DNA of 32,000 bases, taken from NCBI GenBank assembly GCA_000025185.1, contig CP001848.1, positions 2,250,001 to 2,282,000 on the forward strand, read 5' to 3'. Under the pieces are notes generated by a model. That model was not told the DNA's origin. It did no database searches and was given only the letters and a program-made list of their open reading frames with translations. Shown piece after piece: positions 2,331 to 22,737 of the stretch. The translations under genes were made by a program, and so were the position numbers. Positions within the stretch are counted from its first letter, which is position 1; each line of letters opens with the position of its first letter. Source of the DNA: Pirellula staleyi DSM 6068 (lineage in GTDB: Bacteria > Planctomycetota > Planctomycetia > Pirellulales > Pirellulaceae).

Positions 2331-4669
2331 TCCAGTCCGCACAAATAGCGCAGGTGACTCCACTCCCAGTGACGGAAGTACGAGGTACTCGATTGCTCAT
2401 ACTGTGCCAGTAGACGATCGGCGTCTAAGAAGGAGTTGTTCGCAACCCGTTCAGCCGACACACCGATCTGGGCTAGATACGACGCAAGTGCTTCGCGCTG
2501 CTGCGACTCGCGCGCCAGCCGAGCTTCGTTGTCGGCCCGTTCTTTTTCGAGTTGCAGGCTATCTCGCTTCTTCTCGAGTTCGCCGCGCTGGCTTTCGAGT
2601 TCACCCTTTTGCGTCTCCAGGACGTTGTTTTGCTTGGCAATGTCGCCAGCTTGCTTGTTCAGCGTGTCGAGTGCCGATTTGAGGTTTTTGTTGGCATCGG
2701 CGGTTCGCAATGATTGTTCGCGAATCCAAAAGAATGCCCCAGTAAAACCGACAAGCAGAATCAGGATGAGAAGACCGGCGACGCGGCGAAGGCCGTCAAA
2801 TCGTTTTTGTCGAAACGCTCGTTCACTTTGCGCGAGTTGCAATTTGCGATGCAGCGGCGCTTGTTTCGGATCGCGAGGATCGAGCAGCGACACACCGAGG
2901 TCGAAGTCACCTTTGTCGAGCGCGCACTGGGCATAAGCCAGCCGCGCTTCGAGTTCACCAGCGACCGCTCGCGAGTTGCCAGGCCAAAGTTCTTTCGACT
3001 CCTGAAACGCGAACATCGCGCGGGCATAGTCTTGATAGTCGCGCGTCCGCGAAGCATGCGTCAGTTCTTCATCAGCACGGTTGGAAAGCACAATACTTTC
3101 CGAATGCGACAGGTATTGCTGAATCGCCTTCTGCAACTCCTTGACGCTGCCGGGACGCGCTTTGATGTCGGTGCTCATTGCTTGCATCGCGATATCAAGC
3201 AATTCACCCGACTTATCGGTCTCTTGAATCTCGTTGCGGGCTGCTGCGAACAAACATGCCATCACATCCTTGCCGTTGTGTGGCGGCTTTCCGGAGACGA
3301 TCTCAAACAGAATCGCGCCGAGCAGATAGACGTCGCTCGGTGGTCCGATCAATTCAATCGGGCCGGTGGCCATTTCAGGGGCCATGTAGGCGGGAGTTCC
3401 ACCCATGCTCGAGGTTTGCGAAATGCGCCCAGCACCTTCGATGTACATCGAGGTCGATAGAGCGATACCCCAGTCCATGACGAGCACTTCACCGAAGTCC
3501 CCGAGCATCACGTTTTCGGGTTTGAGATCGCGATGGACCACTTGTCGATCGTGAGCAAACGCGATGGCGTCAGCAACGCTCATCAAGATCTTCAAGTTGT
3601 CGGCGAGTGGCTTTTCACGAATGACATTCGACCATGGAATGCCGCGCACGCGCTTCATGGCGTAGAACAGCGTCCCATCGGCAGTGGTCCCCAGGTCGTA
3701 GATCGGCACGATGTTCGGGTGATCGAGTTCGCCGGTGACGACTGCTTCCGTAAGAAACTTGTTGCGGTGATCGCTACGACGCGCGTATTCCTCGCGCAGC
3801 ATCTTCAGTGCAACGGTGCGGCTGACGGAGGCCTGCATCGCGGCATAGACAATACCCACACCACCTTCGCCAATCACTTCGATGACCTGATACTCGGCCC
3901 GTTCGTAAAGTGCTTCCCCCGGCATCTGCACGCGATAGGTGCGGAGCAGCAGGTTCGAGACTTCATCTTCCCCTTCGGCAGGGCTCGCCTTGATGGTCGA
4001 CAGCGGAGTGATTGGCGCGGTGAGCGACTTGCCCCAAGCGTTGACCATTGCCTGTTCGGAGGGATTGCTCGGCGCGGATGGAATTGCCGACTTCCACGCA
4101 TCCGACGGTGTATTGCTGCGAGCAGGATTCACCGAAGGGAGATTGGCCGATGATCCAGTTTCGTCAGGAACATCGAGTGCGCGAACAGTCGGTTGATCGG
4201 GCGTTTTTTCGCGAGGCTTCGTCGGTGGTGGAAGTTCGCGGGGTGGCTCTTCGACAGGCTCACTCACGGGGGCTGCAGGTGGCGGAGCGGGACTACTCGA
4301 GGCTGAACTAGCCCCCCAAGTATCAGGCGTGCTCGACGTCGTCGGTGCTACCTTCGGTGGCAGTGGCACACTGTCACTCGGGATAAATCCTTGGGCATTC
4401 CCAAGAAACAGAGTGTGTGTCCGATTAGGTTCTTCTTTGGGACCACGCCCCGTGATGGTGCGGAGCACATCCTTGACGGTGAACTCGCGTTCCTCTTCTT
4501 CTACCTCTTCTTCAACTTCAGGTGGCGGAGGGCTGACGTAGCTACTGGGAATCGCAGGCGCAATGATCCCCGAGTTGTTGCCGGTCGCTTCGAACCCGCA
4601 ATGTGGGCATGGCTCGCCTTTGACGAGAGCTTTCTCGAGTGTTCGTTCGCAAAACTCGCAAAGTGCCAT
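1..4669 (-). CDS. Ser/Thr protein kinase with N-terminal zinc ribbon, one TM helix, coiled coil and C-terminal WD40 repeat array (3' end lies beyond the window)
   Basis: Absent from the ORF track because the frame (minus strand, coordinate mod 3 = 1) stays open to the window edge. No other listed minus-strand ORF uses this frame between 1 and 4669. Hand translation from the ATG (reverse complement of 4667-4669) gives MALCEFCERTLEKALVKGEPCPHCGF, a CxxC-x13-CxxC pattern. GEGGVG P-loop at 3854-3871. HRDLKPEN catalytic loop at 3512-3535, followed by VMDWGIA (DFG equivalent) and GTPAYMAPE. TM helix VAGLLILILLVGFTGAFFWI at 2723-2782. WD40-type blade endings were verified by translation, e.g. NTVRLWDI (~1020-1045), NTARVWDL (~1485-1510), QRVKVWNT (~1345-1370). 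The final codons at the edge read ...LLKMSRLHEVGGRAFAVNF. Confidence 0.9.
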   Translation of the reverse strand, partial: MALCEFCERTLEKALVKGEPCPHCGFEATGNNSGIIAPAIPSSYVSPPPPEVEEEVEEEEREFTVKDVLRTITGRGPKEEPNRTHTLFLGNAQGFIPSDSVPLPPKVAPTTSSTPDTWGASSASSSPAPPPAAPVSEPVEEPPRELPPPTKPREKTPDQPTVRALDVPDETGSSANLPSVNPARSNTPSDAWKSAIPSAPSNPSEQAMVNAWGKSLTAPITPLSTIKASPAEGEDEVSNLLLRTYRVQMPGEALYERAEYQVIEVIGEGGVGIVYAAMQASVSRTVALKMLREEYARRSDHRNKFLTEAVVTGELDHPNIVPIYDLGTTADGTLFYAMKRVRGIPWSNVIREKPLADNLKILMSVADAIAFAHDRQVVHRDLKPENVMLGDFGEVLVMDWGIALSTSMYIEGAGRISQTSSMGGTPAYMAPEMATGPIELIGPPSDVYLLGAILFEIVSGKPPHNGKDVMACLFAAARNEIQETDKSGELLDIAMQAMSTDIKARPGSVKELQKAIQQYLSHSESIVLSNRADEELTHASRTRDYQDYARAMFAFQESKELWPGNSRAVAGELEARLAYAQCALDKGDFDLGVSLLDPRDPKQAPLHRKLQLAQSERAFRQKRFDGLRRVAGLLILILLVGFTGAFFWIREQSLRTADANKNLKSALDTLNKQAGDIAKQNNVLETQKGELESQRGELEKKRDSLQLEKERADNEARLARESQQREALASYLAQIGVSAERVANNSFLDADRLLAQYEQSSTSYFRHWEWSHLRYLCGLDVTTLPSDGRVEGLARSEQGNLLAACTSAGEIKIWTADWATNKFADLQSISTGDSVAGIALSRDGSLLAAAIDSPRGIVRIYRRQASGQFSPTQDFTIHRAGVLSVEISPDGTKLASSSRDETARVTNLATGEMIAAFRGHFGPVWSVRFDSSGNELVTAGDDATVRMWTLGGPPKPRVFRGHKEAVYNATFSSDGKLVASAGRDKEILVWQPADVRVFDYKLVERQLELERLGRPIPENALGDIAVQRLVGHTAEVRTLHFSLDGKKLLSGGHDNTARVWDLTAKPDDPTFVRTMRGHGGWVRSCLFSADEQFAISGSHDQRVKVWNTPEYEEVRTLRQHDNAVLWAAFSTVGDRCITAGRDRRAILWNLGTGQPLATLNNDPLEISGPTGEQKNATELKEGHEFLVTSALFMPAGDRRIITSAGDNTVRLWDIATGGQLHRFDGTGTISVIALSDDGKWLVTGSDTKDALLWSLADLSKPAVRLAAHRFEVSTATFSHDSETGDLRICTGDSGGVCHLWRRDPSTGNWKTYSRIATHEPGYGITGVAFTRDGGRLLTASQDHTVMQWDLATGNRLGNLTLRHPDGVRNLLLTADSKRAITMCSSGDDSYRLYSWDIDTAKAIECDINIPGSTATGLSLLPSQSSALLTTTTGDTSVLWTWDMASPQVQPLWSGKSLRGTIWSAISSHDGASILAVGGSQGRLLSAETGELEKTFSPHGAITAANFSSDGKLAVTASSDGDAKIWCTDEASDKFGIVLLKMSRLHEVGGRAFAVNF
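3110..3895 (-). other. Protein kinase catalytic domain of the 1-4669 gene
   Basis: Runs from YQVIEVIGEGGVGIVYA through HRDLKPEN, DWG and APE to ...KARPGSVKELQKAIQ. Boundaries are approximate. Confidence 0.85.
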
Positions 4670-4768
4670 GACCAAACCTCGTCTTGCTTCCTACACGTAT
4701 CGGTTTCACGCGATGTCGCATCATGCGACGACCGCTGCTGGTTCATCGTTGTCGAGGATTACTGCGAT

Positions 4769-7700
4769 CTATCGTTCTGCTGGTCGTCGTTTGGCTTGCA
4801 AGCGACCCCGTCGCGACAGCCGCTCGCGACTATGGGCAATCACCGCGCCATCCACTGCCTTCTGCCAATCGCCATCGCTACCTGCCGAAGCGAGCACCAT
4901 CGCGATACCTGCTGTAGCAGGTACAAATCGAATCGGTGTCGCAGCAATTTCGTTCGCATCGGCTGCTGCAAAAACGTCCGACTGACCGAGGCTAGATTCA
5001 CGAACAGTTTCGCTGGCGACAAAATCGCTTGCGTAGGCGTGCGAGTCATCGACATAGGCATATTGCGTCGAGCTACCTGAGTAGTCGTCGAGAGAACTTC
5101 GCTCCAGCGGCGAAACCGCTGGACCCGTTGCATCGCGGAGCGGCGTCGTTGTTGGTGCGTTGAGTGTTGGTCCCTGCAGAGTAGGGCCGGTTGGTAGCGG
5201 TTCGGCCGCTGGCTCATTCACATCCTGCGGCGAGGTGCTAGTCGCTTTGGTAGGTGGCAGTTCGGTCGGCGAATCCTGTTCCATGGTCGGCACAGCACCC
5301 TCGTTCATCGGCGGTGGCGCGACAAACTTCGACGCTGGCTCCAGATCGCGGTTCTCTTCTGGCTCAAAGGGACGACCATCGCGGATCACCACATCCATCA
5401 CGCGCCGTTTTTCGCCACCTTCGAGAATCAAATAGAGGCGATAGCGATCGTCGGGCAAGCGACGGAAAAGAGCCGAAAGGTTCTTCAGCCACTCGACGTC
5501 GAGCGTGAGGACCACTTCTTCGAGGAAGTTCCCTTCGTCGTCGATCGGGGTGAGCAAACTGACTTGCACTTTGCGGACCGCGACACCATCGACATCGGCC
5601 TCGATGATCGGTGGCTCCACGGGGCTGAGCTGTGGAGGCTGAACATCGTTATCGGCTATCGGTACGAAATCGCGCGAGAACGCAATGAACCGGAGCGACG
5701 GGGCTTTGTAGTTGGTGTTCTGAATCGGCGGCACCAGCGAAATATTGCTCAGTACGACGTCGTTGCCCGAGCCGCCTGTGTAGAAAATATTGCTGCTGAA
5801 ATTGCCGATGCTCACCTTGCCATCGATATCGATCGACCCTTCGCCAAGCACGAACTGACCGATCACTTGCGAGTTGGGATCCATCATGTCGATCAGCGTG
5901 ATGTCGGAGATCGTTTGCTGCAGCGCTTCACCACCTTCGAGCGACAAGATGTTGCCCGTGATATCGAGCGAACCGAAGACTTGCAGCTGATCGTAGTCGC
6001 GACCAGGAATCTGATAAGGGGAATTGATGTCGAAAACGAACTCGGTTCCCGGACCGAATGTAGCGTTCCCCACCACAATGATTTGTCCCGCTTGTCCTTC
6101 GCCCATTCCGGGAGCGAGTGTGACAATCCCTGGAGCGATGAGATCGCCTTTCACAATCCCGTCGCCACCAAACGTCACGCCCGGTGACAGCACCGTCGAA
6201 TCAGTGAACCCGTCGAGGTAGAAGGTTCCTGATTGCAAAAAGATCGTGCTGTTTCCAGCATCCAAGGCGAGCAGTCGCAGCGTGGGACTAGCGGAATAGT
6301 ACTGATTGCCAGTCGAGATCGCTTCGACACCCGAGGTGGCCAGGATCATCGGATTCAGAGCGGAACCGATCTCGCCACCTTGTACGGGGTCGTAGTTTTG
6401 ATCGACTTCGCCGATTGCTACAAGCCGCACAATGCCATCGGGGGCCGTTTGAATATCAACACCACCCCCCAAGTTTCCGCTGATCGAACCCATCGCTTCG
6501 AGTGTAACGTTGCCTGCTCGCAAGGTTCCACCGTCGAGATCGATGTTGCTCATTACCCCCTGCACTTGCGACTGGGCGCGAAGAATCAGGTGGGCATTCA
6601 TGTCGAACAACTCGGGCTGAAAACCATCGAGGTTATCGAGCAGGATATCGCCATTGAGCGCGGTGAGTTGAATCGTCGCATCTTCGGAAGTGACGCTCAG
6701 GGCAAGAATCTGACTGCCGCGCAAGTCGCCGCCGTGGAAATTGACGTACGAGTCGCCACCGGTCGAATAGAGGCTCAGATCGCTGTCCCCCAGGTTCACT
6801 TCGAGCGGATTGTCAGCAGTTCCTGTGATGGCTGAAACGATTAAGCTTCCACCCGGAGCACTTACATCGATATCCACTACGCCGGTGCCACTAGTGACCG
6901 CATTGCTCGCGCTGATCTGCACACTGCGAGCGGTGATCATGGCGGCGTTGTTGAAAATGATGTTCGACCCGAAAAGCTCCCAGTCATCGTTCGTTGTGAA
7001 GATGTTCGACAGAATAACGTCGCCACCTCCGAGCTCGATAAATTGCGATTCGGCTCCGTTGGTGGTCAGCGTGCCAATGTTCAGCGTGTCGCCTGACTCC
7101 AGGTAGATATCACCACCGACGGAAGAGGTGCTCACGAAGAGCAAACCGGCCGTTAGTCCGCTTCCGGTGTTCACAGCGAACTCGTTCGCTTGAGCGCCGA
7201 TCATACCGCCCGCTTGCAGCGTGATCGAGCCTTGCGAGGCGCTCGTGTCGACGTCGTACAACGCAGCACCACTCACGATGTTGCGATTGGCATTCAGCAG
7301 AGCTTGAGCAGCCAGCAGTGTGGTGTTGTTCTCGAAAACGATGTCGGCATCAGTCGCGATCGCATTGAGCAGGAAGAAGTCGTTGTTGGTCGAAGAATCA
7401 AAACCTGCGGTGGAGTCGACATACAGCGAGCCATCGAGTGTGGTGAGCAAGATATTGCCAGTCCCACCCTGCAGGACGAGTGTTGCGAACTGACTCGTGT
7501 GGAAATCACCCGATTGCATGTTCAGTGCAACGCTGCTACCCGTAGCGATCACTTCGAGCTGCGTATCGGCCCCCAGGATCAGATCGATCGGGGTACCAAA
7601 CGTCCCAATGTTCTGGGCCTCGAGGTAGAGGTTATTCCCTGCCGTGAGGACTTCGATATCAACGGCGCCGTTGTTCCCGACGATGTTCCCATCGGCGACG

Positions 7701-10700
7701 ATGCTGACCGAGACGGCTCGTAGTGTCCCGGCAGGATTAAAAATCACATCGCTGGCGCTATTGAGTATCCAGTTATCGTCGCTGTTGATGTCGCTGTTAA
7801 TCGTGATCGTCGAGCCAGGATTCAGCGTTGCTACCGAAATCGTCCCCGTGCCTACATCGGTGGTGATTGTGTCGACGAGCAAACTGTCGGCACTTTCGAG
7901 ATAGACATTCGTTCCAGCAGCGGCTGTGATCGGAGTGAAGTTGTTGGGCAGGTCGATATTCAGGGAATTTCCCGACTCGCCAATATCCCCGGCTGCTGTC
8001 AAGTCGATTCCGCCCGCAGTGGTCCGAATGTCAGTCCCAGGATTCGATCCACCGAGAATTGAACCACCGGAATCGACAACCAGGCTCCCCACTTGCAAGG
8101 TTGTGTTGTCGAAGACCACATCGAAACCGGTGTTCGTAGTGAGTACCCAGTTGCCCGACGTCGAAGTTCCCGTGAATCCGGCGGCACTATCGACAATCAG
8201 ATCGCCATTCTCAACCAACAGATCGATTGTTACTGGCAATGCGTTGGTATCGAGTCCGACAAACTGACTAGTGAACAGGTCTCCGCCGTAGAAGCCGAGG
8301 TAGACATCAAACACGCTATCGATCTCGTAAGTGCCAGTTCCAGCATTCACCTCGAGTCGCTGATTTACCGTCCCGACATACGCGGAGCTGATAAAGATCG
8401 CGCCATTCGAGGCACTAGTGTCGATGTCGATCCCCGCAGTGTCGCTGTAGATCGTGTTGTTGGCGAACAAAAACGCCGTGTTCGCCGAGAGGCTTCCATC
8501 ACCTTGGAAAATGATGTTGCCGTTGGCAATCAGCCGCCAATCGTCGTTCGATCCACTGGGGTCGCTGATAATGAGATCGCCGTTGAGCGTACCGACCTCG
8601 ATCGTTTGAATGTCGGCTCCGGTCGAGATCTGCCCGAGATTAAACTGCGTGTCGGAGCGAACAAAAATATCGCCATCGGTTTCGCTTGTCGAAAGCGAGA
8701 CCACACCCGTCCCGGGATTGATTTTGAGGGGATCGCCCGGCTCGCCAATGCCCGACGCCGCAAAAATCGTGATGTCGCCATTGGTGCCGCTGGTATCGAT
8801 ATCGATCGGCGGATTGGCAGCCGAGGTGACTAACTTTCCACCCGCTTGCAAGTTCACGCTCGCGGCAACAAGCGGGTTGGCAATGTCGAGAATGATGTCG
8901 CTACCGGCACCCTCGGCGATGAATGTTAAGTTGTCGTCGAAGATATCGCTGGTGTTGCTGTCGACATCGATGGTGATATCGCCCGATCGTGTCTTGAGGT
9001 AGACATTCACCCCGACACCGACAGCACTGAAGAGGTCGAGTGTCGAAAGCGTGATGTCTCCAGCAACAATCTCGATCGCCAAATCCCCCACAGTTGCCTG
9101 TGCATAGAGGCCTGTAAAGGCTTGATCGAGGACCAGCAGATTGGTGGTGCTGCCAATCGATCCGGCGATAATCTCTATCTCTTGCAAGGCAGAGGTCGAC
9201 TTCAGGTCGTAGTCGTGCGTGCCACTGACAACATCATCCGTAGCGAACAAGAAGAAGATGTTGCCGTCGAGGAAGGTGTCGTCGACAAGCTCGATGTTCC
9301 CTTGTGACGAGAGGAGCCAGTTGTCGTTGGTGGACGACGATTCGACAAACCGCAGGTCGTCACCGCCGCCAAAGGTTCGCAAGTTGATGTTGTCGACGGC
9401 GCCAGCATTGGTGGTCATCAAGCCGACGTTGAAATTGGTGAGCGAGGCGAGGTTGATGCCACCCGAGGTAGCAGCCGTGGCGCGTACGATGCCATTGCCA
9501 GCAGCAATACGAACCGGCGCGTTAACTCCTACGCCCAGCTGCGTAATGAGGGTGATATCCCCATCGAAAGCGCTCGTGTCGATATCAAGCCCAAAGCTTT
9601 GCTCGATCAGTCCATCGACAGTGATTTTGACAGATGCCGCTTCGAGCGTCGGGCCTGTAAAGAGCAAGTTGCTCGAGCCTTCAATCACCCAGTTGTCGTC
9701 CGTCGTATCGACGAAGCCAGTGGTGTCGTCGAAAGTCAGGATGCCATTTTCGATACCGAGATAAATGGTGGATCCAGCGGCGCTGATGCTGAAGAGTGTC
9801 AGCTGCGAGACGTTAAAATCGCCATCGACAATCGAGATGCCGATATCGCTCCCCGATTCGACGGAAATGAACGCTCCAGCCTCGATGTCGAGTCGTAGCG
9901 CGAGGCCACCAGCATCGGGATTGCCGCCGACACTGGCGCCGGTAAGTGTGATCGCTTGATTGAACGAAGTGGCATCGATAGAGACCGTCGTGGCGGTGGT
10001 ATAGATGTTTCCGGTCGCAGTTGCGTCGAGCGAAAGAACGGTCAGTGGAGTCGCTGCGGCGAAGAGGATATCGGCGTTGGCCCCCGTCGTTTCTAGCAGC
10101 CAGTTGTCGTCATTCGTGCTGACATCGATGTTTGTCAGATCGTCGATCGTGATCTGGCCCGCCGCCGCTATCGAGACAGTTCGATTGGCTGGTAATCCGG
10201 TCGAGAGCTGCAGGTCTGAGAAGTCCAAGCTGCTATCGACGAAGTTCAGGAAAATGTCGCCGTCGAGTGCAGTAAACGAAACCTGCGTGCCACTCAGTCG
10301 ACTGATAGCAATCGGCAGCGTATCGGCACCGACATTATTGGCTTCGAGGATCAGTACCCCCCCGGTCGTACCGACGACGGCGATGTCGGTTCCTTGTCCA
10401 TCGGTGGTGATGTTGCTATCGGAAGTCATCACCAGTGTATTCACCGTCAGCGTGTGATTTGCGCCGACGAACTGAATGTCGCCGCTGGCATACACAACCC
10501 AGTTGTCGTCGGTGGTGACGGCGCTGGTGAAGCTGAGGGAAGATGTCGGCACCGAAATATTAACTGTCTGCTCCCCCGCAACCGTCGAGATCGTTCCGAG
10601 GTTGAGTACCCCATCGCTCTGCAAACTGATGTCGCCGGTTAGGTCGGAAGTTGTCAGATCAACAACACCATTGCCGGCGTTCACAATTATCGAATCCGCA

Positions 10701-13700
10701 GGTCCGGCCCCGATTCCCAAAGCACCTGTGAGCGAAATGTTGCCATCAAAGCCCGCCGTGTTGATATCAGTGGCGGCAGTTCCCGAAAGGATCGAACCAC
10801 CGGCATTCACCGTGACACTGGCGGCGAAGAGCGTGACGGAACCAAAGTTCACGTCGCCACTGGCCACGATGGTGAAGTTGTCGTCCGACGTTGCGACAAA
10901 ACCGCCCAGCGAGGAAAGATCGACATTTCCCGCAACGGCTTCGAGCGAGATGACACTGCCGATTCCACTCGAGGAGAGAAGGATGAATTGATCGAGGTCG
11001 AGATCGCCTGTCGCTTGCTCGTAGTAAACATCTCCTGTGGCACTGAAGCTGAGTTTGCCACTTGGAGCACTGAACTGAATCGCATTTCCCACTTGTCCGA
11101 GGTTCGTTCCCTCGAGCGTGATGGCAGTGAGCACCGAGGTGGCTTCCACGCTAGGACCATTGCCAGTCCGAAGCACATCCCCTGCGGCATCGCCGGAGAA
11201 TGTCACAACGTTAAGTGGACTCGCGTTGGCAAACGTCAAGTCGCCCGTACCACCAGCGCGGACGATCCAGTTGTCGTTAGCCGTGTTATTGTGAATGCCC
11301 GTTAAGCTGTCGATGGTGAAGTTGCCCGCCGAGGTGCCGAGCTGAATGGTGACTCCTGTACCGGCTGCTGAGAGGGTGGTGATTTGATCGGTGGAGAAGT
11401 CGCCACCGTCAGCGTCGAAGTAGATCCCTCCCACTGAGGCAGAGAGGCTGACCGTGCCGCCATTCAGATCGGCGCTCAGCGGTGTTGTTGAGGCGCCGAT
11501 CGACTCCGCAATCACTGCGAGTCGGGGTACGACTAAGTCGCCAGTCGAAACTTCGATATCGGTTCCAGCACCATCGGATGTGACATCGCCAGCGGCGTAG
11601 AGTTCGACGATCTTGGCTTGCAGCACTTCGGTGCCGGTGAAGCTGATATCCGACGATCCACCTTGTGCTCGCAAGATCAGCGTGTCGCTTCCGACAAGGT
11701 CGGTAAAGGGCGTGGTGTCGTCGACCACGATGTTGCCATTTTCCGTCGAGATCTCGATGACCTGATTGGCGGCAGCAGCTTTCACGGTTCCGAATCGTGA
11801 GAAATTCAGAGCACCGCCAAGGTACAGAAAGTTGATCCCTTGCGTGTCGGCCACCATGCTGATGAGCCCCGGCGAAGCAACGGTTGCTTCAATCGCATCG
11901 ACACTGGTGCCGACACCCAAAGCAGCGGTTAGTACGAGGGCATCGCCAGTTCCCGACGTGACGAAATCGACCCCCACACCGTTACTCAAGATGCTGCCAC
12001 CCGCATTGATGCTGATGGTGCCAGCCGTGATGCTGTGAGTCCCGGTGGCAGTGAAGTTTCCACCACTCACCACCGTCCAGTTGTCATTGCCCGACGACGA
12101 AGTACCGAGGGTGATGTGACTGCTGGCCCCCGTGGTCGTAATGCGAATCGCTTGAGCGGAACCCCCTGCGGTGGAGAACGCTCCCAGTCGCAGCGAAGCA
12201 GCTGACGAAATGTTGATGTCACCAGCTGTGCCGGCCCCGGTCGTCGTGGCCGAGATAGTGCCGGTTCCAATCGAAACCGCGATGCGATTGCCCGAGGTGC
12301 CGATAGCAGCGCCTGATGCGAGTACCACATTGCCGTTGGCGGTGGCGGTGTTGATGTCGTTGGTGGCGGTGCCACTGGTGATCGCTCCGGCGGTGGCCGT
12401 CAGGCTGGCAGAGGCTGTTGTGAGCGAGCTGTTTCCTGAGAATGCAATGTTGCCGGTCGTGCTGCTGATCGTCGACGTTCCGGCCCCAGTGTTGATGTTC
12501 GCCCCGATCGTGATCGTGCCGGTATGAGTGAGTTCGATATCGCCACCGGCTGTCGAGATGGTGGCGGTACTGGAGAACTGCACGCCGGTTGTGCGGAAGT
12601 CGCCACCGTTGGTGGCAATCGCAGCAGCAACAGTCACATTTCCGGCGGTAGCATTCCCGTCGTCATTCACACCACCCGATGCATTGGCATTGAGTACCAC
12701 CGTCAGCTGACCGTTGCTGGCAGTAATGGCGTCGTCGATCAGGATGTCGTTAGCGGCATTCAAAGTGAGCGTGGCATTGTTGCCATTCATGTTCACCGTG
12801 AGTGGCGCATCGAGCGTGATGTTGCCGTCTTGCGTGCCACCTGTGCCGGTGTTGATCGTAACGTTCGTCCCGGCGGCGAGTGCTGCCGTGATGGTGGAAA
12901 CGTTGATCTGTGTGTTGTTGGCAGTCGCTGTGAGCACACCGGCCGTTAGGATCGCAGTGCCAGTGTTATTGATCGTGACGTTGTAGGGATCGAGGAGCCA
13001 AGTCCCTGCGAGACCATTCACAGCGCTCGCGCTTGCGGCTCCACCGATGGCCAAGTAGCGTTTGCCCGATGTTTCAATGAAGCCACCATTGCCACCTTCG
13101 GCACCACCGCGCGCGGCGATGTTGTGCGAGCCAGCAACAATTGCTGTGTCATCGGCCCAAACGATCACCTTACCGCCGTCCCCTGACTGGATCGCTGAGG
13201 CGTTGATAGCTGCATCGGCATCCATGTAGGTGAGGTTGGCATTGCGAACGATAGGGTTGCTGCCAAGATAGTCGCCACCAACCAGAACTTCACCACCACC
13301 ACGAGTGCCAGTGGCATCGATCAGTGCACCCGAGAGGAGCGAGACTTCATTGCCTAGCAGTTTGAGCTTGCCACCCACGCCAGCGTCGCTCTTGTCGGAT
13401 ACATCGATGGTTCCCGAGAACAGTAGCTCACCCTCTTGAGCATCGAGTGTGACGTTGCCTGCAGTTGCAGTGATGCTCGAGCTTGCAGTAGCGGTGAGGG
13501 ATTCTGTGGCCGAAAGCGTAATCGGTGCATCGCTGGCTGAAAGGTTTCCGGAGAGCATCAGCCGCTCGGCCGATGCATCGAGCGCGCCAGTTTCGAGTTG
13601 CATCGAGCCATCGAGATGAAGCTCGCCACGCGAGGCTAGAAGCTCGAGTCGATCGGACAATCGGAGCTGAAAATCAGCAGCGCGAAGCGTCGCTCCCTCT

Positions 13701-14587
13701 TGCTGTGCATCGATCGAAAGCGAGGACTCGGGAGCTTGAAACGACACCGTGCGATTGCCCGATGTCGTTGCGTAAGCGAGTTGCTCGAGTCCCTCACTGG
13801 TGGCGCTGTTGGCAGCCGAGTTCGTACCGTAGTAATTCACCACGCTGGCATCGACAAACACAAACGAGCGCGAATCGCTCGTGAGTCGATCGACGATCGG
13901 TTCGAAGTCATCGAGTTCTAGCTGCGCATTAATCGAGGACGATTCACGCGGTCCCGTTACTGAAATCGAAGTGCTGGTGTCGGAGAAAGTGTAAGCAATG
14001 CTGCTGGTGTGCTGCCCGATCAGCTCGAGCGTATCGATGCCACTTCCGCCTTGGAGTGAAATTTCTTTGGCGAGATTTCCCGCGCCACTGAAGGTCTCCG
14101 CGAGGTCGATCGACACGAAGTCGTTGCCCGCGCCTGTGTTGATCTGAATTTGATCGCCGCTGAAGCTGTCGAGCGAGAGAATCAGCCGATTCGTGCCATC
14201 GCCGATCGCACCTTCAATCGTGGTGCTAAAAATTTGCGTGGGATCGTATAGCTCGATCGTTCCTTGAGCAGCATCGATTCGAACTTGCAGCTGATTGTCG
14301 TGTGCGCCCGATGAGTTGTCCTCGACGACAAGGTTGCCACTGGCGTCGATCGAAGCATAGAGGGACGACGGGGTAGTGCTCGAGGTGGTCGAACTCGTTG
14401 GTGTGCTGCTGGGAGTCGTTTGGTTTTGTGGAGCCAGCGCACCGGCACCAGCTGCGTTGAGTACATAGCGGGGCTCGAGCGTGCCAACTTCCAGCTGGGC
14501 GAGGAGGGCTTCGCGAGCGGTATGCGAGCTAGCGCGACGCTTCCGTCGAGGCAGCAGCCTCGAGAACCAGTCGAGAATTGGTCGCAT
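4769..14587 (-). CDS. Giant (3272 aa) secreted or surface beta-helical repeat protein with an N-terminal LEPR-XLL-type motif and a filamentous-haemagglutinin-like GNGGFIETSG...WLLDP element
   Basis: A single uninterrupted ORF in the track. Composition is Gly/Thr/Ser/Asp/Asn/Ile-rich and Cys-free, typical of beta-helix adhesins. N-terminus reads ...LEVGTLEPRYVLNAAG. The segment GDGGKVIVWADD...ARGGAEGGNGGFIETSGKRYLAIGG...GTWLLDPYNVTI covers residues ~470-540, with GNGGFIETSG at 13064-13093. A C-terminal module, LAPGMGEGQAGQIIVVGNATFGPGTEFVFDI...DYDQLQVFGSLDITGNILSLEGG, lies at 5735-6118. Confidence 0.9.
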   Translation of the reverse strand: MRPILDWFSRLLPRRKRRASSHTAREALLAQLEVGTLEPRYVLNAAGAGALAPQNQTTPSSTPTSSTTSSTTPSSLYASIDASGNLVVEDNSSGAHDNQLQVRIDAAQGTIELYDPTQIFSTTIEGAIGDGTNRLILSLDSFSGDQIQINTGAGNDFVSIDLAETFSGAGNLAKEISLQGGSGIDTLELIGQHTSSIAYTFSDTSTSISVTGPRESSSINAQLELDDFEPIVDRLTSDSRSFVFVDASVVNYYGTNSAANSATSEGLEQLAYATTSGNRTVSFQAPESSLSIDAQQEGATLRAADFQLRLSDRLELLASRGELHLDGSMQLETGALDASAERLMLSGNLSASDAPITLSATESLTATASSSITATAGNVTLDAQEGELLFSGTIDVSDKSDAGVGGKLKLLGNEVSLLSGALIDATGTRGGGEVLVGGDYLGSNPIVRNANLTYMDADAAINASAIQSGDGGKVIVWADDTAIVAGSHNIAARGGAEGGNGGFIETSGKRYLAIGGAASASAVNGLAGTWLLDPYNVTINNTGTAILTAGVLTATANNTQINVSTITAALAAGTNVTINTGTGGTQDGNITLDAPLTVNMNGNNATLTLNAANDILIDDAITASNGQLTVVLNANASGGVNDDGNATAGNVTVAAAIATNGGDFRTTGVQFSSTATISTAGGDIELTHTGTITIGANINTGAGTSTISSTTGNIAFSGNSSLTTASASLTATAGAITSGTATNDINTATANGNVVLASGAAIGTSGNRIAVSIGTGTISATTTGAGTAGDINISSAASLRLGAFSTAGGSAQAIRITTTGASSHITLGTSSSGNDNWTVVSGGNFTATGTHSITAGTISINAGGSILSNGVGVDFVTSGTGDALVLTAALGVGTSVDAIEATVASPGLISMVADTQGINFLYLGGALNFSRFGTVKAAAANQVIEISTENGNIVVDDTTPFTDLVGSDTLILRAQGGSSDISFTGTEVLQAKIVELYAAGDVTSDGAGTDIEVSTGDLVVPRLAVIAESIGASTTPLSADLNGGTVSLSASVGGIYFDADGGDFSTDQITTLSAAGTGVTIQLGTSAGNFTIDSLTGIHNNTANDNWIVRAGGTGDLTFANASPLNVVTFSGDAAGDVLRTGNGPSVEATSVLTAITLEGTNLGQVGNAIQFSAPSGKLSFSATGDVYYEQATGDLDLDQFILLSSSGIGSVISLEAVAGNVDLSSLGGFVATSDDNFTIVASGDVNFGSVTLFAASVTVNAGGSILSGTAATDINTAGFDGNISLTGALGIGAGPADSIIVNAGNGVVDLTTSDLTGDISLQSDGVLNLGTISTVAGEQTVNISVPTSSLSFTSAVTTDDNWVVYASGDIQFVGANHTLTVNTLVMTSDSNITTDGQGTDIAVVGTTGGVLILEANNVGADTLPIAISRLSGTQVSFTALDGDIFLNFVDSSLDFSDLQLSTGLPANRTVSIAAAGQITIDDLTNIDVSTNDDNWLLETTGANADILFAAATPLTVLSLDATATGNIYTTATTVSIDATSFNQAITLTGASVGGNPDAGGLALRLDIEAGAFISVESGSDIGISIVDGDFNVSQLTLFSISAAGSTIYLGIENGILTFDDTTGFVDTTDDNWVIEGSSNLLFTGPTLEAASVKITVDGLIEQSFGLDIDTSAFDGDITLITQLGVGVNAPVRIAAGNGIVRATAATSGGINLASLTNFNVGLMTTNAGAVDNINLRTFGGGDDLRFVESSSTNDNWLLSSQGNIELVDDTFLDGNIFFLFATDDVVSGTHDYDLKSTSALQEIEIIAGSIGSTTNLLVLDQAFTGLYAQATVGDLAIEIVAGDITLSTLDLFSAVGVGVNVYLKTRSGDITIDVDSNTSDIFDDNLTFIAEGAGSDIILDIANPLVAASVNLQAGGKLVTSAANPPIDIDTSGTNGDITIFAASGIGEPGDPLKINPGTGVVSLSTSETDGDIFVRSDTQFNLGQISTGADIQTIEVGTLNGDLIISDPSGSNDDWRLIANGNIIFQGDGSLSANTAFLFANNTIYSDTAGIDIDTSASNGAIFISSAYVGTVNQRLEVNAGTGTYEIDSVFDVYLGFYGGDLFTSQFVGLDTNALPVTIDLLVENGDLIVDSAAGFTGTSTSGNWVLTTNTGFDVVFDNTTLQVGSLVVDSGGSILGGSNPGTDIRTTAGGIDLTAAGDIGESGNSLNIDLPNNFTPITAAAGTNVYLESADSLLVDTITTDVGTGTISVATLNPGSTITINSDINSDDNWILNSASDVIFNPAGTLRAVSVSIVADGNIVGNNGAVDIEVLTAGNNLYLEAQNIGTFGTPIDLILGADTQLEVIATGSSVALNMQSGDFHTSQFATLVLQGGTGNILLTTLDGSLYVDSTAGFDSSTNNDFFLLNAIATDADIVFENNTTLLAAQALLNANRNIVSGAALYDVDTSASQGSITLQAGGMIGAQANEFAVNTGSGLTAGLLFVSTSSVGGDIYLESGDTLNIGTLTTNGAESQFIELGGGDVILSNIFTTNDDWELFGSNIIFNNAAMITARSVQISASNAVTSGTGVVDIDVSAPGGSLIVSAITGTADNPLEVNLGDSDLSLYSTGGDSYVNFHGGDLRGSQILALSVTSEDATIQLTALNGDILLDNLDGFQPELFDMNAHLILRAQSQVQGVMSNIDLDGGTLRAGNVTLEAMGSISGNLGGGVDIQTAPDGIVRLVAIGEVDQNYDPVQGGEIGSALNPMILATSGVEAISTGNQYYSASPTLRLLALDAGNSTIFLQSGTFYLDGFTDSTVLSPGVTFGGDGIVKGDLIAPGIVTLAPGMGEGQAGQIIVVGNATFGPGTEFVFDINSPYQIPGRDYDQLQVFGSLDITGNILSLEGGEALQQTISDITLIDMMDPNSQVIGQFVLGEGSIDIDGKVSIGNFSSNIFYTGGSGNDVVLSNISLVPPIQNTNYKAPSLRFIAFSRDFVPIADNDVQPPQLSPVEPPIIEADVDGVAVRKVQVSLLTPIDDEGNFLEEVVLTLDVEWLKNLSALFRRLPDDRYRLYLILEGGEKRRVMDVVIRDGRPFEPEENRDLEPASKFVAPPPMNEGAVPTMEQDSPTELPPTKATSTSPQDVNEPAAEPLPTGPTLQGPTLNAPTTTPLRDATGPAVSPLERSSLDDYSGSSTQYAYVDDSHAYASDFVASETVRESSLGQSDVFAAADANEIAATPIRFVPATAGIAMVLASAGSDGDWQKAVDGAVIAHSRERLSRRGRLQAKRRPAER
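6119..12091 (-). repeat. Array of about 15 degenerate protein-level modules of ~124-137 aa, each opening with an x-D-D-N-W-like motif, inside the giant gene
   Basis: I counted module starts at residues 833 (GNDNW), 966 (GSDTL variant), 1103 (ANDNW), 1234 (SDDNF), 1359, 1492, 1629 (TDDNW/NDDNW), 1753 (TNDNW), 1883 (FDDNL), 2013 (SNDDW), 2143 (TSGNW), 2269 (SDDNW), 2400 (TNNDF), 2532 (TNDDW) and ~2661 (DMNAH variant). Spacings are 133, 137, 131, 125, 133, 137, 124, 130, 130, 130, 126, 131, 132 and ~129 aa. The residue count closes to 3272 when counted from both ends. Confidence 0.75.
14450..14587 (-). other. LEPR-XLL-type N-terminal region of the giant protein
   Basis: MRPILDWFSRLLPRRKRRASSHTAREALLAQLEVGTLEPRYVLNAAG. 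LEPR plus YVL lies at 14453-14479. By eye it matches the motif that names the NCBIfam 'LEPR-XLL domain', which is found at the N-termini of very large repetitive proteins. There is a basic cluster but no long hydrophobic h-region. Confidence 0.6.
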
Positions 14588-15178
14588 AGCAGGAGGCTCC
14601 CATCCGTAAAAGCAGATCGATAGCGGTGACGGTCACCTGCAGGGGTGAGCCGCGGCCACGCGACATGCGTCAGAGTTTGTGCATTTCAACCCTGCATTAT
14701 CGGGGTGGAGTGGTCGCAGTGTCAAACTCATCCGGAGATGCCGGTCGAGCCGAAAAATCCGCTGCCAAATCCATCTCGCGATAACGTCGCAACGTGGTCG
14801 CCCAACCGTGTTCGCTCGGCTGGCCAGTTCCTTCTAAAAATCCATTCAACCTGGCCGAGATTTTGTCGCCAAAAACTGTCTGTTTTGCCTAGCCTTCCAT
14901 TCTCTATCGGCCTTTGATCGCGGCCTCCCGCAACAAGTTTGACGGTGGCGGGAAGTGGGTATGTCGCGGTGTTCCGGCTGTAACGGTCGTGCCGGTCGAG
15001 TGAGGATTGGCTGCTGTGCCGGTCAATCCGGATAGTCTCGGAAGACTTGAGAGACCGGTTAAAGGAGGTCGACAACACTCGTGCGACACCGTTAAACCCT
15101 TCGATCCTCCCAACTGGAAGTGCCTGCATGCCCACTGCCGAATCGCGCCTTCCAAGAAGCTCCGAATGTGCCGCTAAG
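14588..15178. promoter_or_regulatory. Long divergent intergenic region, presumed to hold promoters and leaders for the giant gene (-) and the proline-rich protein gene (+)
   Basis: About 590 nt lie between the two divergent starts. The only ORFs here look spurious. GGGAG sits 14 nt upstream of the giant-gene ATG. No promoter motifs could be called with confidence. Confidence 0.3.
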
Positions 15179-17320
15179 ATGCGCCGTAAGTCGTTTCTGC
15201 AAAATGGCTTGTGCAGTGCAGCAGCAGCTCTGTTGATGGCGGCTCCGTGGCTGGGATGCATGCGAAGCGATAGCCTCGTCGAACACCCGGGAGGAACCCG
15301 TTTGCCGTCCGAGGTGGCGGCGGCGGTCGATCCTTCAAGCGGTGCACCGCAGCTGGCGATGGGGGAAAAACCGGCAGCTCGCGATGCCTCCGGTAAGCTG
15401 GTGCTGCCTAGTGCGCAGTTCACCCCTCTGGCGACTACCACCAACGCGATTGCCCGTGATTCGTCGGTTCCAGAGGCCGTTTCCCCCGCAGCACCGTGGC
15501 AAGCTAGCGAAGTCGACACTTTGGCAAACGCGCAGCCTCCGCGCCCGTCGATCATCCCCCCTCCACCACTTCCGGCCCCATTTGCCAATAGCTGGGTCGG
15601 AACGCCAGTTGCAACTCAGCCTGCTCCTGAACTTGCGCCGCAGACCCATCCCTCGATGGTTTCGACTGCGGCACCAACTCGTCCAGAGCCTGCGCCAGGC
15701 ACCGACTTAGTTTCCTGGCCTGTCGTCGACCGGCTTCCCGAGGTCACCAACGAGCAACCAGCTGAAGAACCTCTGCCAACGATTCGTATTCGCCCGGCAA
15801 CACCGACGCCCAGCGTCGTGCGAGCCGCGCCCCAGCCAAACATTCCGCAGCCGACGATTTCGCGCCTGCCAGCGACGTTTGAAGTTTTGCCTCCGGTTGA
15901 CGAACCGAATCAGCCGCTGCCTGTTATCGCTTTAGCGCCGCGCATGCCAGTTCCGCGCGACGTAGCGAGCGATCGCCCGGCAGCAGTCACTCCGAAGATT
16001 GAGCGACTTGCGCCTCTCGTGGAAGAGCCAGCACGCGCTCCCTTGCCAGCGGTGCCGCGTCAAAACATTGTGCGTCTTCCCGAGCCTGTAGTTCCAGCCG
16101 CTGCTGTGGAGTCCGACCAGCCGCGCGTCCTGAATGCCTATCGTCCGCCAGAGTTCGAAGGACGTAACCAGCGTGTCATCACACCCGAAAAAGTCGAGAT
16201 GATCGATGCGCCGCAAATCAACCTTTCTGCAGGGCCAGCGGTAGCGAGCACGAATGTTCCCGGAAGCTTGCCTCCGATTGTCCATGCTTCTCCACAACCC
16301 GAGCAAAAGTCGTCACGTCGATCAGCAATCGCCGCCGCCTCCCATACGCGGCTGACTCCGAGGAGCGCAACGCCGCAGGCTGCAGCTTTAGGGTCGATGA
16401 CCCCTGAAGTTCGCTCGGTACTGGTTCGTCCTCAAACGATCAAAACCGATTCGGGCGAAGTGATGCTGACGAGCGAAATGTCGCCACGGTCTGTGAGCGT
16501 GCTCGCTTCACGTGTCAGAATCGCGCCACCACCTGCAGGTGAAGAGCGAGTGCTCGAGATTCATCCCGAAGCACCTTCGGAGCGTGCTCCCGACTACGTA
16601 ACCCCTCAAAATTCCATTCCACCAGAACATCCCGCCGCATCGCCAGAAGCAGAAACCTACGACCCCGAAGGGTATGTGGTGCAAGAGGAACTTTTGCCCC
16701 CTCCAACCTCGGGAACGCCGCAGCCACCACCACGAATTACGATCCAGCCACCAGCCTCGAACAATTCCTCGACCGAAAGCGAACTGCTTCCTCCTGCGTC
16801 AGAGCCAGGCTTGCTCGATCCCGATCAAACAACGCAGGCCGATCCGCCCCAGCGTTTCAAACCGCTATCGTCCCTCACTACGAATATCGCGGTTCCGACC
16901 TATCGCACCGTCACGGGGGACGCGCTGCCGATGCCAGCAGACTATGCCACCGAGTTTTTTGCCAACCAAGGTCCCGATTGGCGATCGGAACGTGCTTCGC
17001 GCTATGGCGACTACGTTGTGAATCCTCAAGGACTCGAGTTCTGCTATCAGCCACTCTACTACGAAGAAGTAAACGTCGAGCGCTACGGCCTCACATTCGG
17101 AGTCGCCCAGCCTGTCGTTTCAGCAGCCCAGTTTTACGGCCGCACCGCTGTGCTCCCATTCATGATGGTCACACATCCACCACGCAAGTGTGCCTGCCAT
17201 CCTCACTGGACATTGCCTGGCTATCGCAGCTGCTGGGAAGTGCCCGACTACATGCCACGTCCCGACGCCGCCGCCGTGGAAGCTGCTTTCGTACTGGGGC
17301 TGATTCTGCTCATTCCGTAA
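15179..17320 (+). CDS. Proline-rich envelope protein with a signal-peptide or lipoprotein-like N-terminus and a conserved Cys-containing C-terminal domain ending in a hydrophobic tail
   Basis: The track ORF begins at a TTG (15047). I prefer the ATG at 15179 because it yields MRRKSFLQNGLCSAAAALLMAAPWLGC: a basic n-region, an h-region, then Cys, although the lipobox is imperfect. The central ~550 aa are rich in Pro, Ala, Glu and Val. The last 121 aa (16955-17317) read FFANQGPDW...FCYQPLYYEEVNVERYGLTFGVAQPVVSAAQFYGRTAVLPFMM...CACHPHWTLPGYRSCWEVPDY...AFVLGLILLIP. From memory this resembles a planctomycete-restricted hypothetical family with a (H/Y)xPLYFE(D/E)xNLERYG motif. I cannot name the family. 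Confidence 0.75.
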   Translation: MRRKSFLQNGLCSAAAALLMAAPWLGCMRSDSLVEHPGGTRLPSEVAAAVDPSSGAPQLAMGEKPAARDASGKLVLPSAQFTPLATTTNAIARDSSVPEAVSPAAPWQASEVDTLANAQPPRPSIIPPPPLPAPFANSWVGTPVATQPAPELAPQTHPSMVSTAAPTRPEPAPGTDLVSWPVVDRLPEVTNEQPAEEPLPTIRIRPATPTPSVVRAAPQPNIPQPTISRLPATFEVLPPVDEPNQPLPVIALAPRMPVPRDVASDRPAAVTPKIERLAPLVEEPARAPLPAVPRQNIVRLPEPVVPAAAVESDQPRVLNAYRPPEFEGRNQRVITPEKVEMIDAPQINLSAGPAVASTNVPGSLPPIVHASPQPEQKSSRRSAIAAASHTRLTPRSATPQAAALGSMTPEVRSVLVRPQTIKTDSGEVMLTSEMSPRSVSVLASRVRIAPPPAGEERVLEIHPEAPSERAPDYVTPQNSIPPEHPAASPEAETYDPEGYVVQEELLPPPTSGTPQPPPRITIQPPASNNSSTESELLPPASEPGLLDPDQTTQADPPQRFKPLSSLTTNIAVPTYRTVTGDALPMPADYATEFFANQGPDWRSERASRYGDYVVNPQGLEFCYQPLYYEEVNVERYGLTFGVAQPVVSAAQFYGRTAVLPFMMVTHPPRKCACHPHWTLPGYRSCWEVPDYMPRPDAAAVEAAFVLGLILLIP

Positions 17321-19590: not shown

Positions 19591-19592
19591 GA

Positions 19593-20528: not shown

Positions 20529-20625
20529 CGAATCGTTGCGTGAGCAAGCTCGTCACTCGTGCGTGTCGTGAGTTATCCTGGCGGAAATTGACGGAATCGC
20601 CGCTCCAAAACAAGGTGGTCGCGCT

Positions 20626-22605: not shown

Positions 22606-22737
22606 GGTTAGCGGCAATTTCGATCGAGGTGATGTGCGGGAAGAATCACGGGCCACGAGGAGCCAAGACTGTGCTCGTGGCAAGCTCAATCGTAGCAAGA
22701 ATCGCTCGAATGGAGCAAGGAATAGATCGAAAGCAAA

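Follow-up and report, generated by a model that had tools for sequence, protein, structure and literature searches.

The 3272 amino acid giant protein encoded at this locus of Pirellula staleyi DSM 6068 is, with a probability of about one half, the dedicated cargo of the adjacent OMF/GAF-adaptor/adaptor/RRE-M50-adaptor module, and a planctomycete leader would replace the Sec signal and the TPS domain. Judged from the conserved gene order, the neighbouring protease-fused export duct is the likely exporter of the giant. Leader and module genes are linked and co-occur, the protease motifs are intact and the N-terminal domain of the protease was modelled as an RRE fold. Positions refer to the window, which is the whole 32,000 nt stretch of DNA that was analysed (contig CP001848.1, positions 2,250,001 to 2,282,000).

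The open reading frame of the giant is real, and its N-terminus is exactly as quoted in the initial annotation, including the Ser/Thr linker that follows it (residues 55-76). The start codon is the first ATG, 15 codons past the upstream stop, and over the first 700 residues the protein is 67-40% identical to full-length relatives. Whole-protein Pfam and NCBIfam scans of the giant gave no family match; matches came from pieces only. The distance to the operon had been given as approximately 2.8 kb and is 2.79 kb, measured from the start of the giant gene at 14587 to the end of the M50 fusion gene at 17380. The features of the locus are listed in Table 1.

Table 1. Features of the giant gene, its product and the neighbouring genes (positions in the window; residues are those of the giant).
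Feature	Position	Strand	Remarks
Ser/Thr kinase with WD40 propellers	2..4675	-	co-oriented, 93 nt downstream of the giant gene; runs past the window edge
Giant protein gene, 3272 aa	4769..14587	-	ORF; full-length relatives exist
Conserved C-terminal tail	4772..4936	-	RFVPATAGIAMVLASAGS (weakly hydrophobic), W..VD.A helix, Arg/Lys-rich end
Beta-helix shaft of about 14 repeats, each roughly 125-133 aa	6128..12100	-	DDNW or similar motif opens each; from motif spacing
EtpA/HMW1-homologous beta-helix, residues 370-634	12686..13480	-	phmmer and Foldseek
GNGGFIETSG...WLLDP element, residues 499-534	12986-13093	-	within the EtpA-homologous segment
N-terminal beta module, residues 77-369	13481..14359	-	AF2 pLDDT mostly >85
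Ser/Thr/Pro linker, residues 55-76	14360..14425	-	
Tripartite N-terminal leader, residues 1-47	14447..14587	-	amphipathic Trp segment MRPILDWFSRLL, basic cluster PRRKRR, motif LEVGTLEPRYVLNAAG
Divergent gene between operon and giant gene, probable lipoprotein	15047..17320	+	likely start near 15179
RRE (PqqD-like)/M50 metalloprotease/HlyD-adaptor fusion, 736 aa	17380..19590	-	
Periplasmic adaptor (MFP), 311 aa	19593..20528	-	TIGR01730, 121.9 bits
GAF-domain/adaptor fusion, 690 aa	20626..22698	-	
Outer-membrane factor (TolC/OEP family), long extension, 1285 aa	22738..26595	-	PF02321, E 4.8e-21

Residues 370-634 of the giant align with residues 298-568 of EtpA (phmmer, E 2.4e-31), and the best Foldseek matches of the beta-helix segment are EtpA and the secretion domain of HMW1 (E 3e-8 to 6e-6). 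The homology to EtpA bears out the beta-helix sequence and the haemagglutinin-like GNGGFIETSG...WLLDP element described in the initial annotation, and the giant has the FHA/HMW1-like beta-helical passenger of TpsA exoproteins. With the HMW1/EtpA class of two-partner secretion (TPS) adhesins (T5bSS TpsA) it has in common the GGFxETSG...WLLDP element and a fibre that forms a right-handed beta-helix and continues into long repeats; in contrast to this class it apparently lacks a Sec signal peptide, it lacks PF05860, and no TpsB was found in the genome. The homology starts exactly at the end of the TPS core of EtpA. The position of the relatives' TPS domain is occupied by the N-terminal beta module (residues 77-369), which is similar in sequence only to planctomycete relatives and shows neither sequence similarity to TPS nor a match to PF05860.

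The TPS domain (PF05860, NPNL/NPNGI motifs) was not matched by Pfam on the whole giant or its pieces, and PF05860 had no match in the complete 6.2 Mb genome, a search in which the TPS control was also silent in every control genome. No match to TpsB (PF03865, ShlB/FhaC-type Omp85) was found in the complete genome at E <= 1, and the absence of a TpsB/Omp85 partner noted for the window holds genome-wide in this search. Homologous passengers elsewhere need Sec and TPS/TpsB, and neither TpsB nor a TPS domain was found in this genome; therefore, another outer-membrane route is needed. More distant FHA-like proteins, present in 21 planctomycete genomes, match the post-TPS region only. Since the M50 fusion is absent from 15 of these genomes and is never adjacent to the FHA-like proteins, a link of the module to the FHA-like passenger was rejected; the module is linked to the leader.

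Two other export systems were considered for the giant. RTX/Lap-type T1SS giant adhesins have RTX repeats and an adjacent ABC transporter, whereas the giant has neither: the RTX nonapeptide model (HemolysinCabind) reached 13.2 bits against a cut-off of 23 bits, and none of the window ORFs scanned encodes an ABC transporter. This agrees with the absence of both that had been stated before, and the RTX/T1SS-ABC reading was rejected. The window also contains genes for a TssBC sheath and a PAAR protein, but nothing ties either to the giant gene, and a T6SS cargo reading was likewise discarded.

The giant begins with an amphipathic stretch that contains Trp; an Arg/Lys cluster comes next and then LEVGTLEPRYVLNA, a LEPR-XLL motif that is divergent and scores below threshold. 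RRKRR...LEVGTLEPRYVLNA spans residues 14-44, so that this large surface-type protein has, at its very N-terminus, a basic cluster followed by an LExRxLL-type motif. Leaders of the Planc_extracel/LEPR-XLL type likewise combine a basic cluster with L-E-x-R-x-hydrophobic-hydrophobic, lack a hydrophobic core and are carried by very large surface-type proteins; the leader of the giant differs from PF07595/NF012209 as a divergent subtype, in which the motif stands behind the Trp amphipathic segment. NCBIfam NF012209 scored 15.3-16 bits on residues 36-53, under its 17-bit cut-off, and Pfam PF07595 (Planc_extracel), which matched 22 other places in the same genome, did not match this leader. Because of these two results we regard the motif as a divergent variant, and the LEPR-XLL-type start proposed initially stands for the basic cluster and the subsequent motif but not as a member scoring above the family thresholds. 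An HMM built from the generic leaders of the same genome gave the leader only 3 bits. Residues L37, E38, R40 and V42 are invariant in nine relatives, and residues 1-72 were modelled as disordered (pLDDT <50).

The motif RRLxxExLExRxLLA (PF07595) was proposed as a planctomycete export signal (Studholme et al., 2004, as cited in PMC8567305). Motifs of this class are taken to be export signals, and 8 of the 10 longest proteins of Tuwongella immobilis carry one (PMC8567305). A classical signal is not apparent in the giant. The best 10-residue Kyte-Doolittle mean in its first 80 residues is 1.47 (VLNAAGAGAL), whereas the neighbouring adaptor, OMF and lipoprotein reach 2.97, 3.03 and 2.22, respectively, in their signal peptides. 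By this hydrophobicity heuristic, the N-terminus is predicted to have no Sec- or Tat-like hydrophobic core. The stretch past the RRKRR cluster contains R, E, E, E and R and therefore no Tat-like h-region, and the N-terminus has no lipobox; the Tat signal and lipobox readings were rejected on the N-terminal sequence. The hydrophobic core, lipobox and twin-arginine signal reported as missing are thus missing as far as this heuristic and the motifs tell.

The operon next to the giant gene has the same protein set and architecture (GAF-HlyD, HlyD/biotin-lipoyl, Peptidase_M50-HlyD, OEP) as a locus of secondary SecA_DEAD, Peptidase_M50/HlyD, HlyD and GAF/HlyD with or without OEP, to which no cargo or role was assigned (Kamneva, Poudel and Ward, 2015; PMC4452313). 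It differs in that SecA_DEAD is missing from the window copy and present beside a paralogous copy. The genome has two paralogous M50 modules, and the second SecA_DEAD gene (1,057,011-1,059,323) lies beside one of them, outside the window. The operon had been called energiser-less, which is correct for the locus, where none is encoded, but not truly so for the whole genome, since this gene adjoins the paralogous module at 1.057 Mb. Beyond the published locus, a specific clade of the module is here tied to leader-bearing giant genes. Leader and module have each been published; we found no paper joining them.

The N-terminal domain of the M50 fusion models as a leader-peptide-binding RRE fold, with lasso-peptide B1 proteins with bound leader peptides (TbiB1, TM-target 0.72) and PqqD as top matches. 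HExxH and NPxxxxDGY are invariant among the M50 fusions compared. The leader-recognition-like domain that had been suspected on the protease is consistent with this model, and the protease active site is intact. RRE-dependent M50 leader peptidases of RiPP pathways (daptide MpaP, NF041824; YydH/LiaK, NF058609) also have an RRE fold and M50 catalytic motifs. The fusion matched NF041824 with E 1.3e-40 and 139.8 bits, far under the 300-bit cut-off; unlike MpaP-like peptidases it has an additional HlyD adaptor domain, and no small precursor gene was noticed nearby in an unsystematic look. M50 proteases are not known to form protein-conducting channels, which speaks against export of the giant by the module, as does the lack of an energiser at the locus.

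The block consisting of operon, divergent gene, leader-giant gene and kinase gene is conserved around four of the five relatives with flanking sequence. The outer flanks differ between these block-sharing relatives, which fall in the same identity range of 67-40% over the first 700 residues of the giant. All five relatives for which sequence is available at that place have the kinase gene directly downstream of the giant. The product of the divergent gene combines a Pro-rich linker with a conserved domain of unknown function at its C-terminus, PLYFEE..ERYG...GLILLIP, and has no Pfam or NCBIfam match; homologues of the gene have equal position and orientation in nine other loci, and a weaker match is found elsewhere in locus L060. 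The close relative L002 kept the giant gene, the kinase gene and the PLYFEE gene, and has no operon within 10 kb.

In a tree of 96 fusions, the M50 fusion of the window belongs to a 16-row clade (SH-aLRT 100%) that includes Rhodopirellula baltica. A leader-bearing giant gene is located 1-2.8 kb downstream on the same strand in 11 of the 13 clade members for which 4 kb or more of sequence is available downstream. Altogether, eight such adjacencies were found in 80 retrieved loci, compared to approximately 0.4 expected from the leader density of the P. staleyi genome, an enrichment seen only with a looser motif and after splitting the loci by M50 clade. The generic-leader HMM gave seven matches in 1.25 Mb on the 80 loci nearest to the query, which is about background and no enrichment; the idea that every module has a leader gene next to it was therefore rejected. 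The giants adjoining modules differ in their passenger sequences and have the tripartite leader in common, and the leader subtype of the window accompanies a single clade of the M50 fusion. A distant M50 clade drawn from seven families has LEPRxLLSA-type genes that either share an operon with the module or are divergent from it. That the giant is not exported at all, or that the linkage is inherited gene order without functional meaning, is very improbable. The N-terminus without a classical signal (hydropathy heuristic) would suit a protein that stays inside, but the giant is a beta-helix adhesin homologue of the secreted EtpA and HMW1, and the gene order persists at approximately 30-40% protein identity in Pirellulaceae- and Planctomycetaceae-labelled genomes with unrelated flanks.

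The M50 fusion was found in 48 of the 51 NF012209-positive planctomycete genomes, compared to a base rate of 105/401; this co-occurrence is partly phylogenetic, and the LEPR model is insensitive, so that its negatives are not true negatives. The phylum-wide distribution is the opposite of leaders occurring mostly in fusion-less genomes, the outcome named in the initial annotation as speaking against a connection. In family f6, the NF012209 leader and the fusion are both found in the same 3 of 12 genomes. Synteny, the orthologous M50-fusion clade, the 48/51 co-occurrence and independent arrangements in distant families strongly support a genomic link between the leader class and the RRE-M50-adaptor operon. 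Only three LEPR-positive genomes lack the fusion, two of them at marginal E-values, and the linkage recurs across several independent gene arrangements; both argue against the leader being a general planctomycete export tag on another route (an atypical Sec or an unknown system), with the module linked to the giant for another reason. Such a reason might be a different, perhaps small, substrate, envelope quality control, or signalling that involves the GAF domain and the kinase encoded downstream. We consider this explanation unlikely, but it would fit the approximately 25 further leader proteins of the genome, which are scattered far from all three M50 modules, the absence of a leader gene within 10 kb of most M50 modules, among them the two paralogues of this genome, and the lack of a nearby operon in L002. 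The RRE-M50 proteases known so far (NF041824 and NF058609 matches) also act on small RiPP precursors; a small precursor gene was not noticed in the loci examined, although this look was not systematic. For the preferred reading, in which the module exports the giant, module-leader adjacency is exceptional and approximately 25 leader proteins are remote, so that service in trans must be assumed; L002 and the sub-threshold score of the leader also count against this reading.

The C-terminus offers another candidate signal. Its layout (Pro-rich linker, weakly hydrophobic A/G-rich segment, basic/Trp-rich end) is conserved among the orthologues (L001, L003, L004, L045, P0005 and P0008), the module resembles a T1SS (PMC4452313), and substrates of classical type I systems carry their signal at the C-terminus. 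The tail could direct export or sorting as a type-I-like signal or membrane anchor, and the N-terminal motif would then be for chaperone docking or for keeping the protein back until the machinery is ready for it. However, the tail is limited to close orthologues and the giants encoded beside related modules share the N-terminal leader only; in addition, the giant has no RTX repeats and no ABC transporter was found among the scanned window ORFs, which makes this arrangement quite improbable.

According to the export model that we prefer, the giant would be a beta-helical surface fibre with a shaft homologous to HMW1/EtpA-class two-partner-secretion adhesins, in which the Sec signal peptide and the TPS domain are replaced by a planctomycete-type leader. 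This leader comprises the amphipathic Trp segment, the Arg/Lys cluster and L-x-V-x-x-L-E-x-R-x-V-L, a divergent form of RRLxxExLExRxLLA (PF07595)/LEPR-XLL (NF012209). It might be docked by the cytoplasmic RRE domain and removed by the M50 protease at or just past the motif, and the unfolded chain would pass through the adaptor/OMF duct. The energy would come from an ATPase acting in trans, for which housekeeping SecA and the second SecA_DEAD protein, encoded next to the paralogous module, are candidates. The fibre may stay tethered by its conserved hydrophobic and basic C-terminal tail. A two-step variant would fit equally well: Sec would take the chain through the inner membrane, and the module would trim it and carry it past the outer membrane.

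In leader-cleaving bacteriocin exporters (PCAT-type T1SS, e.g., CvaAB-TolC), the leader is recognized in the cytoplasm, the protease of the exporter cleaves it and the cargo leaves through adaptor and TolC. The route proposed here from genes and models follows the same logic. PCAT-type exporters have a C39 domain on an ABC transporter and export peptides, whereas here the M50 protease is fused to an adaptor, no ABC transporter was found among the window ORFs scanned and the cargo comprises thousands of residues. We tentatively suggest that leader, module and a SecA-type motor in trans might constitute an undescribed secretion pathway of Planctomycetota. Such a pathway would bring surface fibres of megadalton size out of the cell by docking of the leader and trimming by the intramembrane protease, and in this lineage it would have replaced two-partner secretion as the export route of an HMW1/EtpA-type adhesin.

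Planctomycetes have many giant surface proteins, which lack classical signal peptides, and the motif was proposed as an export signal in 2004. The locus represents a natural swap experiment: a passenger that is exported elsewhere by Sec and TPS/TpsB bears a planctomycete leader here, and its gene adjoins an orphan T1SS-like module, described in 2015, of a clade that seems dedicated to such cargo. The same arrangement is present in the cultivated model planctomycete Rhodopirellula baltica and is thus directly testable. If the link is confirmed, both the secretion route and this use of RRE-guided intramembrane proteolysis would be new.

The giant gene is real, and its length and N-terminal sequence are as given in the initial annotation (see the table below). 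The source genome is complete and consists of a single contig of 6.2 Mb, in which the window covers positions 2,250,001-2,282,000. A Sec-like hydrophobic core is missing from the giant protein according to a hydropathy heuristic: the highest 10-residue Kyte-Doolittle mean at the N-terminus is 1.47 (VLNAAGAGAL), compared to 2.97, 3.03 and 2.22 for the signal peptides of three neighbouring genes. There is also no Tat-like h-region, because charges break up the stretch following the RRKRR cluster, and inspection of the N-terminus revealed neither a twin-arginine signal nor a lipobox, in agreement with what had been annotated. Two further annotated features, a Ser/Thr linker at residues 55-76 and GNGGFIETSG...WLLDP at residues 499-534, were confirmed. 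The LEPR-XLL motif was recovered by NCBIfam model NF012209 at residues 36-53, but with 15.3-16 bits it stays under the cut-off of 17 bits, and a search of the genome with PF07595 matched 22 other places and not the giant's leader. The leader is a divergent subtype of the planctomycete export-signal motif class.

The genome encodes at least 25 more large proteins, the longest having up to 5010 amino acids, whose N-termini show a basic stretch and then (F/L)-E-S-L-E-x-R-x-M-M-A; a hydrophobic core is absent from all of them. This generic motif is the RRLxxExLExRxLLA motif, which was proposed as a planctomycete export signal (Studholme et al., 2004, as cited in PMC8567305). In Tuwongella immobilis, 52 proteins were found by Mahajan et al. 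to carry it, eight of the ten longest among them (PMC8567305).

Features in the window and paralogous modules in the genome of Pirellula staleyi DSM 6068.
Feature	Position	Strand	Remarks
Giant gene	window 4769-14587	-	longest frame of the window, 3272 aa
Giant, shaft repeats	window 6128-12100	-	~14 repeats of 125-133 aa, each starting (T/S)xDDNW
Giant, C-terminal tail	window 4772-4936	-	kept in orthologues to ~40% identity
Four-gene operon	window 17380-26595	-	OEP/TolC-family protein; GAF-adaptor fusion; plain adaptor; PqqD-like/M50/adaptor fusion
GAF-adaptor/adaptor/M50-adaptor module (paralogous)	genome 1,050,316-1,059,323		adjoins the genome's second SecA_DEAD gene
GAF-adaptor/adaptor/M50-adaptor module (paralogous)	genome 2,816,770-2,825,729		without SecA_DEAD gene
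Divergent PLYFEE-domain gene	window 15047-17320	+	between M50 fusion and giant gene
Ser/Thr kinase with WD40 propellers	window 2-4675	-	93 nt past giant gene
TPR-methyltransferase gene	window 26870-28228		between operon and TssB-TssC/PAAR genes
Fused TssB-TssC (VipA-VipB) contractile sheath protein	window 28376-30154	+	
PAAR-motif protein	window 31447-31821	-	

The whole giant chain matched no family model. A homologue search with residues 1-700 returned two kinds of relatives. Planctomycete relatives, labelled Pirellulaceae or Pirellulales, are 67-34% identical over this query with similarity starting at the first residue; in all of them an amphipathic segment containing Trp comes first, then an Arg/Lys cluster and L-x-V-x-x-L-E-(P/E)-R-x-V-(L/F). 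Relatives from cyanobacteria, proteobacteria and others align only from approximately residue 330 onward, and most have PF05860, the two-partner secretion (TPS) domain, in addition to a classical signal peptide. In a comparison with solved structures, giant residues 370-634 aligned with residues 298-568 of EtpA at E 2.4e-31, and they also aligned with HMW1; homology therefore begins at the end of the TPS core in these adhesins. An AlphaFold model of residues 1-640 (mean pLDDT 82) is disordered at residues 1-72 and confident and nearly all beta-strand at residues 73-640, which we read as a predicted beta-helix; the structures that it matches best are the secretion domains of EtpA and HMW1. The shaft repeat series contains some gaps of double length. 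Orthologues share the C-terminal layout of a Pro-rich linker, R-(F/L)-(V/F), a weakly hydrophobic A/G-rich segment of ~16 residues, a W..VD.A helix and a basic or Trp-rich end; this tail may be an anchor or sorting signal.

The absence of a TpsB partner, first noted for the window, extends to the complete genome, where neither a ShlB-type TpsB nor a TPS domain was found. The giant is therefore an HMW1/EtpA-type fibre whose two-partner secretion apparatus has been exchanged for something else. It was rejected as a TpsA protein and as an RTX-type substrate of a type I secretion system (T1SS).

In the neighbouring operon, HExxH and NPxxxxDGY of the M50 fusion are invariant in 13 diverse homologues. 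The leader-recognition-like domain ascribed to this protein is supported by a structure model of residues 1-135 (84 sequences, pLDDT 84): the best PDB matches are lasso-peptide B1 proteins complexed with their leader peptides, followed by PqqD and sactipeptide RRE domains (TM-target 0.6-0.74, probability 0.97-1.0, with modest E-values). The window locus encodes no motor, and to our knowledge an M50 protease has not been described as a protein channel. Three paralogous modules are present in the genome (the window copy and those at 1.05 Mb and 2.82 Mb). A SecA_DEAD gene is absent beside the window copy and the 2.82 Mb copy, and the 1.05 and 2.82 Mb copies have no leader-bearing gene within ~15 kb. 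The same module has been described in silico around secondary SecA_DEAD genes, its cargo being left unknown (Kamneva, Poudel and Ward, 2015; PMC4452313).

Synteny was compared in five relatives with sequence or called genes around the giant gene. Four have the same block of OMF, GAF-adaptor, adaptor, M50 fusion, divergent gene, giant gene and kinase-WD40 gene, with differing outer flanks; at the fifth locus, L002, the operon is not within 10 kb and the other three genes are retained. In one relative (L004, GCA_033762315.1) the M50-adaptor fusion at 6054-8266 is broken into a 553-aa and a 170-aa frame, the giant gene being intact; possible reasons are a frameshift, decay of the protease gene or an error in the assembly.

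For a tree of 96 M50 fusions, 80 further loci were fetched. The window protein falls into a 16-member clade (SH-aLRT 100%), which takes in Rhodopirellula baltica and Planctomycetaceae-labelled genomes. Thirteen members have 4 kb or more of sequence downstream; in 11 of these, a leader-bearing giant gene follows on the same strand at a distance of 1-2.8 kb, mostly with the PLYFEE-domain gene in between; the clades of the two other paralogues have almost no such neighbours. This arrangement occurs at 8 of the 80 loci compared to ~0.4 expected from the leader density of the source genome, many of the cases being orthologous and hence not independent events. In a distant M50 clade from seven other families, genes of the LEPRxLLSA type either share an operon with the module (loci L010, L011) or are divergently oriented to it (L006, L013-L015). 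M50 fusions on three MAG contigs labelled Candidatus Kuenenia (L029, L032, L042) nest among Pirellulales/Planctomycetaceae, possibly owing to mis-binning or gene transfer.

Among 401 evenly sampled planctomycete genomes, the M50 fusion was found in 105 and an NF012209 match (E ≤ 0.01) in 51, 48 of which have the fusion; these are related, non-independent genomes, and the model misses many true leaders, scoring nothing in the source genome at this threshold. LEPR proteins thus occur mostly in fusion-bearing genomes, the opposite of the outcome that would speak against a connection. Two of the three fusion-less genomes have marginal E-values, and in one family (f6) both genes occur in the same 3 of 12 genomes. 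The giants adjoining M50 fusions have the tripartite leader in common and often differ in their passenger, and more distant FHA-like planctomycete proteins are mostly found in genomes without the fusion and never beside it. It is the leader, and not the type of passenger, that is associated with the fusion. For the majority of M50 modules, in this genome and in others, there is no leader gene within 10 kb; with ~25 generic leader proteins scattered in the genome, one has to assume that the modules generally act in trans.

The PLYFEE-domain gene, always on the opposite strand, is also present at the loci L001, L003, L004, L020, L028, L045, L063, L077 and L080 and has a paralogue at genome 5,589,924-5,590,205. 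Its product ends in a conserved domain of ~120 aa (PLYFEE.N.ERYG...LQP..S...FF.T.P.LPY...GLI(F/L)LIP) without a Pfam or NCBIfam match; in the window copy it also has a Pro-rich linker and a lipoprotein-like signal. The kinase-WD40 gene directly follows the giant gene in each of the five close relatives for which this stretch is available, the operon-less L002 among them. The TssB-TssC and PAAR genes, located at the window's right end, are of type VI or contractile-injection type.

There is good support for a functional coupling between the giant gene and the adjacent module (probability approximately 0.75). It is plausible that the module is the exporter of the giant, with the leader as address; removal of the leader by the M50 domain, also proposed initially, would be a more tentative step. 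Our literature search found no paper connecting the leader class with the module. In its mode of action, the giant would be closest to the leader-dependent cargo of PCAT-type T1SS, except that an RRE-M50-adaptor fusion takes the role of the peptidase-ABC transporter.
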